Source: a virus. From it: a stretch of 32,767 bases of DNA. Both the position numbers and the translations under genes were made by a program. Shown here one piece after another: positions 8,979 to 11,897 of this stretch. Below the pieces are notes generated by a model. The model ran no database searches, was not told the DNA's origin, and saw only the letters and a list, made by a program, of their open reading frames with translations. Position 1 is the stretch's first letter. Each line of letters begins with the position of its first letter. The stretch spans positions 67,557-100,323 of IMG/VR virus record IMGVR_UViG_3300029999_000001, one strand, 5' to 3'.

Positions 8979-9623
8979 CACGCTACAGGTAGACTGGAAC
9001 AGTGGAGACATGGAGCGATACTTCCTTTGCCGCTTACCTCGCCGGTTTTACCGATGGAGAGGGCTACATGGACGCACCGCCTCACGGGGGGCTGCGCATC
9101 ATCCTGGCCAACTGTGAACGCGACGTGCTGGAGGCCATCCGGCGGCGGCTTGGCTACGGCGTAATCAGGTCCCAGCAGCAGAAGCCACATTGGCGCGAGC
9201 GCTTCGTCCTCGTAATTTCGAGCGCCGCCGACTGTGAGAGCTTTGCCCGCCTCACATTGCCATACCTGATCATCAAGCGGCGGCCGGCACTTGCCATCCT
9301 GGCCAAGTGCGAGGAATGGCGGAATGTCGTCGCGTCCTATGAAGAGCGAAACCATCTCATCAGGGAAGCCATTGCGGCGGGCGAAGTGCAGAAAGAAATC
9401 GCAGCAAGATTCGGCCTTAGCCAGCAGGCAATCTCGCGCATCAAACTGGGGCACACGTGGCCATCCGAGAAGCCCAAGAGTGCACGTCAAGGCGCCCGTG
9501 GTGCTTCGCTTCGAGGTCGCGTCAGGCAACACTGGTCATCCTCTCCGGGGCGCGGCCTGAATGGCACTGATCGACGGCCACAAGTCGCTGAAGAATCCAC
9601 TCAGCCACAGGAACCGCAATAGC
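8979..9623 (+). mobile_element. free-standing homing endonuclease insertion in C5 MTase motif X
   Basis: Bounded by the two copies of the MTase tail; almost entirely occupied by the HEG ORF. Confidence 0.8.
9002..9622 (+). CDS. single-motif LAGLIDADG homing endonuclease with C-terminal HTH
   Basis: AYLAGFTDGEG motif, LPYLIIKR, HTH GEVQKEIAARFGLSQQAISRIKLGHTW; TAGACT 6 nt before GTG. Confidence 0.88.
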   Translation: METWSDTSFAAYLAGFTDGEGYMDAPPHGGLRIILANCERDVLEAIRRRLGYGVIRSQQQKPHWRERFVLVISSAADCESFARLTLPYLIIKRRPALAILAKCEEWRNVVASYEERNHLIREAIAAGEVQKEIAARFGLSQQAISRIKLGHTWPSEKPKSARQGARGASLRGRVRQHWSSSPGRGLNGTDRRPQVAEESTQPQEPQ

Positions 9624-10808
9624 GTTCCCGCATTGCCGGTACCGGGCCGAGTCGGACTGTTCCGTCCCGTCCGCCTGCCACCGCGTCCAGTCGTCGGGGA
9701 GGCCCATCAAGCGCTCGCACTCAAGCGGGGTGAGCCGGCGGACGGCTGTTGCGGTCTGGACGCCGGTTATGGCGCGGGAGACGGCCATGATTGCGTCGTC
9801 CTTGCCGCCATGACCGGGAGCGCCGTGGTTGGTTCCCCAGGATGCCGTCAGCGTTGGAGCGGTTATCAGATGGCCGCCCGCCGCACCCTCGGCGTCTATC
9901 CGGTGCCCTCGCCGTCCGCCGCCCTGGAGGGTGGAGGCGACGAGCTGGCCGGCCGCGGCCTCGTCGGCGCCGACACGCCACCCTCCGCCCGGCCCGCCGG
10001 TTCCGAGGGTTCCGATCGTGCGAGGTTCTCCAGCGCCCCCTGAAGATCCCCCGGCATCACCCGGCCCCGCCTGGCTGCCCGCCGCAGGATCCCGGTCGCC
10101 GCCCTCGGACTCAAGGAGTACTTCCGCAGGTGCGGCCCGGTCTCCAAGACATCCGGCAATGAAGACACGACCGCGACGCTGGGGGACGCCGAAAAACTGA
10201 GCGTCCAGAACTCGGTAGGCGACCCCATCCCAGCGCTTCCCCACCGCCCCGAGGACGGTACCCATGGCTCCTCCATGGAGTCCCATGCAGCCGCCGGGGC
10301 AGGCGCCGCCTTCGGGAACGTGGGTGACGTGGGCGAGGAAGACACGCTTCCCGTCTCGCTTCTCCCATCGCCCGCATCGAACAGCGCGCCTGTTGTCCAG
10401 GCAGGTTTCGTCTCCGGGACATGAGCAGACGGCCGAGAGCATGCCTGGCACGTTTTCAAATAGGAGCCAGCGTGGACGCAGTTCGTCAGCGAGCCGCATG
10501 AAGTGCCAGAAAAGTCCTGAGCGTGCTCCACCCAGGCCCGCGCGGCGGCCAGCGATGGAGAAGTCCTGGCAGGGTGAGCCCCCGGCGAGGATTCCCCGTC
10601 CGGGAACAAAGCCGGCTGCGATGAGCTGGTCACCGGTGATCTCCGTTACGTCGTTGAACAGGGCTGTGCGGGGGAAGTGGCGGGCGAGCACGCCGCGGCA
10701 ATCGGGGTCGATTTCCACGGCCGCTACGACGTTCACCGCGGCCCGTTCGAGCGCCAGGTCGAAGCCGCCGATGCCGGCGAACAGGGAGACCGCAGTGAGA
10801 TCGCTCAT
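9522..10808 (-). CDS. orphan DNA (cytosine-5)-methyltransferase
   Basis: Motif I SLFAGIGG, IV GSPCQDFS, VI ENVPG, VIII FGVPQRRGRVF, IX RRLTPLECERLMGLP, X QCGNAIAVPV; ATG 10808 overlaps upstream TGA. Confidence 0.95.
   Translation of the reverse strand: MSDLTAVSLFAGIGGFDLALERAAVNVVAAVEIDPDCRGVLARHFPRTALFNDVTEITGDQLIAAGFVPGRGILAGGSPCQDFSIAGRRAGLGGARSGLFWHFMRLADELRPRWLLFENVPGMLSAVCSCPGDETCLDNRRAVRCGRWEKRDGKRVFLAHVTHVPEGGACPGGCMGLHGGAMGTVLGAVGKRWDGVAYRVLDAQFFGVPQRRGRVFIAGCLGDRAAPAEVLLESEGGDRDPAAGSQAGPGDAGGSSGGAGEPRTIGTLGTGGPGGGWRVGADEAAAGQLVASTLQGGGRRGHRIDAEGAAGGHLITAPTLTASWGTNHGAPGHGGKDDAIMAVSRAITGVQTATAVRRLTPLECERLMGLPDDWTRWQADGTEQSDSARYRQCGNAIAVPVAEWILQRLVAVDQCHSGRAPERMTSVA
9896..10633 (-). 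CDS. overlapping +1-frame protein resembling the M.EcoHK31I beta polypeptide N-terminal/central part
   Basis: 245-codon open frame with RWGSAGM...FWTL...PSVAVVSSLPDVLETGPHLRKYSLSPRAATGILRRAARRG..MP..L..AL; similarity recalled from memory, not aligned. Confidence 0.6.
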   Translation of the reverse strand: MTSSSQPALFPDGESSPGAHPARTSPSLAAARAWVEHAQDFSGTSCGSLTNCVHAGSYLKTCQACSRPSAHVPETKPAWTTGALFDAGDGRSETGSVSSSPTSPTFPKAAPAPAAAWDSMEEPWVPSSGRWGSAGMGSPTEFWTLSFSASPSVAVVSSLPDVLETGPHLRKYSLSPRAATGILRRAARRGRVMPGDLQGALENLARSEPSEPAGRAEGGVSAPTRPRPASSSPPPSRAADGEGTG

Positions 10809-11362
10809 GCGGCACGCCCCAGCCGGCTGATGCCCGCCAGTTCCCTGGCGATGACGCCGGACAGCAGCAGGGACGGGCGCCACACGCCCCAATCCTGCCC
10901 GGCAACCGTAAGGGCGTGCCCCATCTGCTGCTGGGCCGGGGTCGGCTTCCCCCGCATCGTCTTGAGCTCGCGCCAGAGGATGCCGCGGGGGCCGATCAGG
11001 ATGTCGTCGGGGACGCCGGGTGTGGTGCCGCGGGAGTTGTAGACGTGGATGCGGAGGACGCCGAGGTCTTTGCAGATGGCCCGGACGTGTTCCTCGAGCT
11101 CGTCCTCGCTCATCGCCGCGGCGAGAGTATGGAACCCAGCAGGGGGACGCGGCTTCCCGTCCACGCCCCCTGCCGGGGCTTGTCCCGCACCCGCAGCTGG
11201 GGGGGTAGCTACAGGTGCGGAAGTCTGACCGGACCCGCCCGGGGGGGCGGACGGGTCCGGCGTGGCCACGTCACCGCGTGAACCTGGACACGCGGGTGAC
11301 ATGGCCGGCCCAGCGGGGGCAACGGGGGCAACCCCGGCCGGGCGGTCTGGGATACGGGTCAT
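10805..11362 (-). CDS. VRR-NUC family nuclease with low-complexity N-terminus
   Basis: MSEDELE...PGVPD...RELKT..GK.T..Q......L......GVWRP. Confidence 0.82.
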   Translation of the reverse strand: MTRIPDRPAGVAPVAPAGPAMSPACPGSRGDVATPDPSAPPGGSGQTSAPVATPPAAGAGQAPAGGVDGKPRPPAGFHTLAAAMSEDELEEHVRAICKDLGVLRIHVYNSRGTTPGVPDDILIGPRGILWRELKTMRGKPTPAQQQMGHALTVAGQDWGVWRPSLLLSGVIARELAGISRLGRAA

Positions 11363-11622
11363 GGGGCACCGTCGTCTTTCAGCGCCAGCCCGGCCGCGTC
11401 GAGGACGCGCCGGACCTCGGCGAGCTGGGCGGGCCCGAAGTTGTACCGGTCCATCAGCTGGTCGGCGGTCCAGCCGGTCAGTACGCCGATGGTGCGGATC
11501 CAGGCTCGCAGCAGCGAGTTCTGCGTCTGTGTGACCATCCGGCCGGTGTCGCCTTCGGGCCAGAGGGTGAGGATGGAGGCGTTCGCGTCCACCACGGCCT
11601 GGTCCCGCGCCCCGGCGTTCAC
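11359..11622 (-). CDS. stand-alone RNA polymerase alpha-CTD-like protein
   Basis: TQNSLLRAWIRTIGVLTGWTADQLMDRYNFGPAQLAEVRRVLDAAGLALKD matches the alpha-CTD pattern N.L.R.GI.T.G.L.......L.D..NFG...L.EV...L...GL.LKD. Confidence 0.75.
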   Translation of the reverse strand: MNAGARDQAVVDANASILTLWPEGDTGRMVTQTQNSLLRAWIRTIGVLTGWTADQLMDRYNFGPAQLAEVRRVLDAAGLALKDDGAP

Positions 11623-11897
11623 TGGCCTGGCCTCGGGTACGTGATGACGGGTGAGTGCTCAGCCTTAAGTTTCGGCTTCGCGGCCTCGTACGGGAGCAGC
11701 CCGCACGCTTCCAGCAGCTCCCCGAACGCGCCTGGGTCATCTTCGAGGCAGGCGATGGCCCCGGCGACTTTCCAGAGCCGGGCGAGCCTGTGTTCCCGCA
11801 TCGCCTCCGTGGGGTGCCGGCCGGGGTACGGCATCACGGTGGAGGCGTCAGCACTAGCCAGGATGGCGGCGGTCGTGTGGTCACTGTGCACGGTCAT
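11619..11897 (-). CDS. hypothetical protein
   Basis: Coupled ORF (ATG 11897). Confidence 0.55.
   Translation of the reverse strand: MTVHSDHTTAAILASADASTVMPYPGRHPTEAMREHRLARLWKVAGAIACLEDDPGAFGELLEACGLLPYEAAKPKLKAEHSPVITYPRPGQ

Follow-up and report, generated by a model that had tools for sequence, protein, structure and literature searches.

A conserved +1-frame open reading frame nested in a viral C5 DNA methyltransferase gene: a candidate small subunit supplied in trans

Does a viral gene for a C5 DNA cytosine methyltransferase also encode a second protein in another frame of the same strand, and, if so, what would that protein do? The question is raised by a 32,767-nucleotide stretch of DNA, here called the window (positions 67,557 to 100,323 of IMG/VR virus record IMGVR_UViG_3300029999_000001, a complete record of 100,323 bp), with a guanine-plus-cytosine (GC) content of about 68%. 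A reading of its letters by eye and open-frame list, which we call the original prediction, had proposed that a 245-codon +1 frame within the methyltransferase gene specifies protein-like sequence where the main frame turns into Gly/Ala after motif VIII, stays open across a Cys-rich insert, and gives a second chain carrying the post-motif-VIII segment, while the main chain keeps the target recognition domain (TRD) and motifs IX-X. The open reading frame (ORF) lies exactly at 9896-10633, on the minus strand, with a GTG start and a TAG stop; the quoted peptide is present where the main frame degenerates, and the frame is open over the insert at 10281-10436. Our answer is graded. The core of this ORF is very probably translated in the +1 frame and under selection, its product is probably a separate chain started upstream, and we lean, a little less strongly, towards a whole mechanism in which that chain would act in trans as a small subunit, like the beta chain of M.EcoHK31I but carrying the post-motif-VIII element. 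The argument turns on the following features.

9522-10808, minus strand: C5 DNA methyltransferase coding sequence (main frame), 428 amino acids, from ATG at 10808 to the stop TGA at 9522-9524; Pfam PF00145, E 1.4e-51.
9896-10633, minus strand: nested +1 ORF, 245 codons, GTG start, TAG stop, wholly inside the methyltransferase coding sequence (direct reading).
10019-10162, minus strand: +1 core, product residues 158-205, with SLPDVLE, KYSLSPRAATGILRRAARRGRVMP and L..AL; selected in the +1 frame.
10161-10181, minus strand: motif VIII (QRRGRVF) in the main frame, directly upstream of the +1 core (alignment).
9945-10103, minus strand: Gly/Ala/Pro-rich linker, main-frame residues 236-288, from the EVLLE strand to the TRD; as main-frame protein, its first half is free of constraint.

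The length of the window's +1 ORF is, taken alone, no more than chance would give: long alternative-frame ORFs are abundant at this GC content, and the 162 upstream +1 codons remained stop-free in 6.8% of synonymous shuffles of the main frame. It is comparison with relatives that lifts the ORF above chance. Over the Gly/Ala stretch of the main frame it encodes SSLPDVLETGPHLRKYSLSPRAATGILRRAARRGRVMPGDLQGALENLA, and the core of about 48 codons has the consensus SL.D[IV]LE, KY.LS.[KR]A..GILRRA and LP..L..AL, with 15 invariant columns among 14 distant sequences. We judged selection by per-position nucleotide diversity, using 83 aligned +1 ORFs with their codons threaded on. From the 5' end up to the last residue ahead of the core, variation peaks at the main-frame wobble; over the roughly 48 codons from SLSD[IV]LE to AL..VA it peaks at the +1-frame wobble, and positions 1 and 2 of the +1 codons do not vary at many core residues (G, I, R, R, A and P among them). 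Amino acid identity follows the same division (+1 frame against main frame: 0.65 against 0.43 in the core, 0.43 against 0.68 upstream of it), and the pattern recurs in low-GC and actinophage-like subsets. Two short stretches have low diversity at all three codon positions: alignment columns 104-113, around the junction, and columns 74-87, which correspond to the block below, where both frames appear to be under selection (SGRW..GMGSP in the +1 frame).

10217-10258, minus strand: +1-frame block PSSGRWGSAGMGSP, overlapping the main-frame strand that immediately precedes motif VIII; constrained at each of the three codon positions.

The same result emerges from an alignment built on the main frame, in which the window was set against its 10 nearest relatives from a pattern-fetched set described below. 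Differences per site at main-frame positions 1, 2 and 3 were as follows.

N-terminal domain: 0.21, 0.13 and 0.47.
Main-frame residues 220-235: 0.21, 0.11 and 0.21.
Main-frame residues 236-263 (core): 0.48, 0.27 and 0.24.
Main-frame residues 264-290: 0.34, 0.29 and 0.55.

The wobble thus switches in the window's own clade, and 10019-10103 therefore evolves as a +1-frame protein; the adjoining 10104-10162 is constrained in both frames. These comparisons show purifying selection on the core in the +1 frame, both family-wide and in the window's clade, which is the outcome that the original prediction would expect of a check of selection in both frames. Its claim of a 245-codon coding frame holds for the core and needs trimming at the 3' end, where the last 40 or so codons carry no +1-frame selection.

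9896-10018, minus strand: tail of the +1 ORF, about 40 codons, open, with no +1-frame selection; the main-frame wobble is back after main-frame residue 263, and the tail is probably a by-product of high GC.

Upstream of the core, it is the openness of the frame that is conserved. Measured from stop to stop, the +1 ORF has a median of 165 codons that is nearly constant over 41-69% GC, and among the 17 loci with less than 52% GC the shortest has 151 codons; the corresponding +2 frame, taken as a control, has a median of 30 codons. In most relatives the +1 stop falls 0-14 codons past the core; the distance reaches 30 codons in a few and is 45 in the nearest high-GC relative. When the main frame was shuffled synonymously, a mean of 3 upstream +1 stops arose (0.6-7.2 across loci), against none observed in 83 of 83 loci, and the median fraction of shuffles lacking such a stop was 0.034 per locus; these figures apply locus by locus, as the loci are related and their probabilities are not to be multiplied. 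The original prediction had pointed to stop avoidance across homologs as a sign of coding and to frequent interruption as a sign against it: the upstream frame is uninterrupted in all 83 loci, and stops inside the core number 0 in about 210. By a permissive test, most loci show, where the +1 frame opens, a start codon (ATG, GTG or TTG) with a Shine-Dalgarno-like sequence; in many relatives this reads AAGGAG, 7-8 nucleotides, ATG, and in several a +1-frame stop stands immediately before it. The window has a comparable arrangement.

10631-10648, minus strand: likely initiation region of the +1 ORF, with the +1-frame stop TAA at 10646-10648, GGAG at 10641-10644, a 7-nucleotide spacer, and GTG at 10631-10633.

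How widely is the arrangement shared? With the +1 peptide as query, tblastn matched 140 phage records at up to 62% identity (E 1e-9), among them mycobacteriophages and phages of Caulobacter, Vibrio, Pseudomonas, Ruminococcus and Akkermansia, and in all eight annotated phages that were opened (GC 51-64%) the match lies +1 to the methyltransferase, in an open +1 frame of 134-194 codons. Scanning IMG/VR for the conserved part of the product (the segment) gave at least 583 loci, in the best 80 of which the segment is +1 to the N-terminal domain without exception (80/80); 72 of them keep motifs IX-X in the main frame, and 5 have them in the segment's frame. A bacterial-genome scan turned up 321 loci, mostly from Acidobacteriaceae and Beta- and Alphaproteobacteria; among those kept, motif VIII stands one base behind the segment's frame in 80 of 80, after inspection of two broken genes, and the main frame is unbroken in 72 of 74. 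A further set, free of selection on the segment, was fetched by main-frame TRD and motif X patterns only, and every locus in it with an N-terminal domain reaching motif VIII has the segment in +1 (52/52, E 1e-18 to 1e-38). About 210 relatives at 38-76% GC share the same +1 ORF, always +1 to motif VIII and close to 160 codons in length at any GC content. The segment was found in frame with motif VIII in none of these loci, nor in 229 proteins of the window's clade, and no in-frame GIL.RA-type motif occurs among the 120 best main-frame homologs. All of these sequences and loci are mutually related, and the counts are not independent events.

In protein databases the +1 product has homologs among at least 726 called proteins and 2066 cluster representatives (E up to 0.001), most of them "hypothetical proteins" of 155-170 amino acids without a Pfam domain. 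Thousands of such entries arose where the +1 ORF was called in place of the N-terminal half of a methyltransferase, and the nested +1 gene is widespread and invisible to standard annotation. The expectation that annotation pipelines would miss a nested architecture is borne out by metagenome assemblies in which the caller preferred the +1 ORF together with a 5'-truncated methyltransferase: at three loci (L003:2721-4514, L004 and L005) it chose a +1 ORF of 160-167 amino acids and passed over a full methyltransferase ORF of 597 amino acids. Two of these loci, L003 and L004, adjoin TrbL/VirB8 conjugation genes, so the methyltransferase family travels on integrative or conjugative elements besides phages. 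Several bacterial genomes, among them Silvibacterium bohemicum (L105, L131 and L097) and other Acidobacteriaceae, hold two or three copies of the dual-coding methyltransferase.

Some relatives carry the segment in one frame with the TRD and motifs IX-X (proteins P0246, P0273, P0281 and P0292, and locus L079). The clearest layout is that of L079:1422-2577 (IMG/VR, 41% GC), in which ORF A (226 amino acids) comprises motifs I-VIII and ORF B (325 amino acids), in the +1 frame and overlapping ORF A by 503 nucleotides, comprises leader, segment, TRD and motifs IX-X. It is one of the 5 of 80 viral loci with motifs IX-X in the segment's frame, and the only one in which that frame is continuous from the segment to motif X; in the other four (L013, L021, L052 and L056) a stop follows the segment and motifs IX-X form a separate ORF. 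Because such natural in-frame fusions join the segment to the TRD and motifs IX-X, the segment is a genuine part of the enzyme, and the window's family holds both an AquI-like split form and a nested form. Methyltransferases of the window's clade are further broken up in two cluster J mycobacteriophages. Mycobacterium phage Dove (L001) has gp107 (motifs I-VIII and a TRD module), gp108 (motifs IX-X) and then an HNH gene; in phage Schatzie (L244) the gene is annotated [quoted passage not shown] and has an HNH endonuclease inside. Two database proteins, P0238 and P0269, have the +1 segment joined in frame to a LAGLIDADG-like N-terminal part.

What might the segment contribute? The element L.D.LE....KY.LS normally follows motif VIII in monomeric C5 methyltransferases. 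A segment profile aligned by hhalign to Escherichia coli Dcm falls on residues 292-338, directly after motif VIII, though weakly (E 0.097). Family searches yielded little of use: the +1 product has no Pfam or NCBIfam match; in PHROGs two relatives alone gave a weak match, to phrog_16143, itself apparently a family assembled from +1 ORFs of this sort; and the ESM Atlas returned only unnamed clusters, mostly viral. The co-folding of the two chains that the original prediction had suggested favours binding. The main chain (63-row alignment) was modelled together with residues 120-210 of the +1 product (82-row alignment), and the complex scored 0.82 against 0.33 for the best of three controls; of 80 solved complexes 58 attained that mark, as did 2 of 110 mismatched pairs, a calibration only roughly valid here because the alignments were our own. 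At least 57% of contacts are common to the runs, and the pLDDT (predicted local distance difference test) of the partner is 80 or higher. On the main chain the modelled interface comprises residues 175-209 (the motif VII-VIII strand), 224-233 (EVLLE), 354-367 (the motif IX helix), 400 and 404, and the +1 block at 10217-10258 contacts main-chain residues 194-202.

Selection, conservation of the ORF, the complex model and the natural fusions together lead us to infer independent initiation, heterodimer formation and a requirement for methylation, in a mechanism that would run as follows. The methyltransferase gene would be dual-coding, its main frame giving a full-length enzyme that runs from motifs I-VIII through the EVLLE strand and a flexible linker to the TRD and motifs IX-X. 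A second polypeptide would come from ribosomes that initiate on their own at GTG 10633 of the same mRNA, in the +1 frame; the first 120 or so residues of this polypeptide would be an unselected leader that need only stay stop-free. Its functional part would be about 85 residues (10019-10276): SGRW..GMGSP, SL.D[IV]LE and KY.LS.[KR]A..GILRRA..RG..[LM]P..L..AL. This small chain would bind the large one, adding a strand beside the motif VII-VIII sheet and packing helices on the motif IX helix, and would supply in trans the post-motif-VIII element that monomeric enzymes possess and the main chain lacks. The division of labor set out in the original prediction, a second chain giving that segment and a main chain retaining the TRD and motifs IX-X, thus agrees with the selection, the open ORF with its start, the model and the fusions.

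Several considerations weigh against this proposal. Translation, binding and the requirement for activity are argued from comparative and modelled evidence, and the relatedness of the sequences lessens the force of the locus counts. An unselected leader of about 100 codons is an odd design for a subunit, and part of the Shine-Dalgarno motif could reflect main-frame residues such as KEW. The complex score is the model's own confidence and may owe something to memorized folds of monomeric methyltransferases. No detectable sequence match links the core to solved structures (PDB, searched by peptide and by profile), Pfam or NCBIfam, and it resembles the in-frame element of Dcm weakly.

Other explanations would account for part of the evidence. 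A programmed +1 frameshift near motif VIII could yield a truncated fusion of motifs I-VIII and the segment, acting with the full-length enzyme or regulating it, and in the split relatives its product would be the canonical monomer: L079 and P0292 have the segment, TRD and motifs IX-X in one frame, +1 to motifs I-VIII, from which a single shift would make a standard monomer, and the nucleotides near the junction are conserved at all three codon positions (columns 104-113). A frameshift, however, needs neither the 100 or so stop-free codons upstream, present in 83 of 83 loci, nor a start and Shine-Dalgarno sequence there; in the window's architecture two shifts would be required for a full enzyme containing the segment; and the two-frame fusion proteins that have been called join at scattered places, all before motif VIII, and look like indels. 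No slippery site, main-frame stop or rare codon was noticed at the window's junction, where no systematic site search was made. Because the +1 ORF has its own start and Shine-Dalgarno sequence and a conserved open frame upstream, we favor independent initiation and consider frameshifting unlikely. Somewhat less likely still is that the ORF is translated and selected for a product that is no methyltransferase subunit, such as a regulator of expression or a protein with a separate phage function. The lack of an annotated family match leaves room for such a role, and the basic helices (RRA..RG[KR]) could bind nucleic acid alone; yet the +1 ORF occurs only inside the window's methyltransferase clade and always in the same place, some relatives have the segment joined, in a single frame, to the TRD and motifs IX-X, and the model docks the product on the catalytic domain with controls passed.

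It is also conceivable that the ORF is untranslated, opened by GC and conserved through the main frame, or that it is the fossil of a compensating pair of frameshifts. Its unremarkable length in the window and the variation of the N-terminal two thirds of the +1 product with main-frame wobble are what one would expect of such an ORF. Main-frame constraint, however, cannot give +1 codon periodicity with a free main-frame first position, the ORF is equally long at 41% GC, a fossil would have decayed across lineages with main-frame N-terminal domains only 31-40% identical, and the core is free of stops throughout the relatives; we regard this explanation as very improbable. Two further candidates were rejected. 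Sequencing error or a pseudogene is incompatible with both frames being intact in the window and in L174 and L175 (main protein about 85% identical) and with the recurrence of the layout in about 210 loci. A true protein that switches frame twice is at odds with the 40 of 40 closest homologs that are main-frame throughout and with the +1 ORF's own conserved 5' end. The reading that we retain is the nested small subunit started from its own site.

The main-frame gene itself is that of a C5 DNA cytosine methyltransferase, with a PF00145 match and all motifs in one frame. Motifs I (F.G.G), IV (PCQ), VI (ENV) and VIII (Q.R.R) fall within residues 1-216; past motif VIII come a short strand (AEVLLESE), the Gly/Ala/Pro-rich stretch, the TRD module, motif IX (VRRLTPLECERL, 9684-9743) and motif X (GN). 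By tblastn, all 40 closest homologs align in the main frame over the whole gene, Gly/Ala filler included. A start at TTG 10892 needs correcting: alignment with homologs places the true start at ATG 10808. The remaining features of the gene are these.

9606-9743, minus strand: motif IX (VRRLTPLECERLMGLPDDWT) and motif X (QCGNAIAVPV), both in the main frame (alignment).
10281-10436, minus strand: Cys-rich insert of the main protein, separating motifs VI and VII; by alignment, present in the closest homologs and not in the shorter P0047, P0054, P0079 and P0085.

The insert, a Cys/His-rich stretch of about 52 residues that may bind metal, accounts for the longer +1 leader in the window's clade. 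Upstream, an ORF of 311 amino acids (10805-11740, minus strand) ends in ATGA, its stop overlapping the methyltransferase ATG at 10808, an arrangement that suggests translational coupling; this ORF has no Pfam match, and since its N-terminal two thirds are Arg/Pro/Gly-rich, its true start may be further downstream. Convergent to the methyltransferase lies a LAGLIDADG-like ORF with a helix-turn-helix (HTH) domain (9002-9622, plus strand; PF14528, E 2.4e-4, and HTH_3, E 2.7e-4, both slightly short of the Pfam cut-offs), and the listed 3' ends of the two overlap by about 100 nucleotides.

Long same-strand overlapping genes in bacteria and phages are rare, often disputed and forbidden by gene callers. 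Against that background the nested methyltransferase case stands out for the clarity of its evolutionary signature, makes functional sense and has a precedent in biochemistry, and our literature search found no description of a conserved nested ORF across phage C5 methyltransferases. The broadest form of the proposal, that the whole phage and mobile-element clade consists of obligate two-chain C5 methyltransferases with a +1 gene of about 160 codons nested in each large-subunit gene, seems to us evenly balanced between true and false. If it is true, the two-chain clade would span hosts among Actinobacteria, Proteobacteria, Acidobacteria, Firmicutes and Verrucomicrobia and thousands of sequence clusters, and would rank among the largest and most widely conserved overlapping-gene families of prokaryotic viruses, its fused and nested forms recording one frameshift that split a monomer and a second that rejoined all but one segment. 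If the small chain is needed, recoding or codon optimization of the annotated methyltransferase ORF for expression would destroy the second gene unnoticed and could give an inactive enzyme, which would bear on phage methyltransferase cloning, on methylome and REBASE-style prediction and on the engineering of split methyltransferases. Thousands of metagenomic "hypothetical proteins" of about 160 amino acids would then be explained, and the family would present a natural series from monomeric enzyme to heterodimer through frameshifts.

How does the proposed arrangement compare with known methyltransferases? Monomeric E. coli Dcm has an in-frame L..LLD.....KY.L after motif VIII, the place at which the segment profile aligns; in the window's clade, by contrast, none of the roughly 210 loci and 229 proteins has the element in frame with motif VIII. 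M.AquI (CYCGRG) is divided into an alpha chain with motifs I-VIII and a beta chain with the rest of the variable region and motifs IX-X (PMC3404938). Relatives such as L079 are divided alike, into motifs I-VIII and segment plus TRD plus motifs IX-X, whereas in the window one continuous main frame carries motifs I to X and only the segment of about 85 residues is separate. The closest parallel in gene layout is M.EcoHK31I (YGGCCR), the beta chain of which is encoded in another frame inside the alpha gene, both chains being needed for activity (PMC2836561). The window's putative small chain is likewise encoded wholly inside the large chain's gene in another frame, and the N-terminal 42 or more residues of M.EcoHK31I beta, which are dispensable (PMC2836561), parallel the unselected leader of the window's +1 product; internal Met codons of that beta chain can also initiate (PMC2836561; PMC3404938). 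The two systems differ in what the small chain carries: in M.EcoHK31I, beta is reported to have motif IX, and alpha motifs I-VIII, motif X and the TRD (PMC3404938), as the original prediction had correctly contrasted, whereas the window's main frame includes motif IX as well as motif X, and what the +1 chain brings is the post-motif-VIII element, not motif IX, a comparison in which beta is known to us by published description only. Even this difference could prove smaller than it appears, as the core LS.[KR]AC.GIL loosely resembles the motif IX pattern LT.REC.RLQ, and the "motif IX" of M.EcoHK31I may be the same segment.

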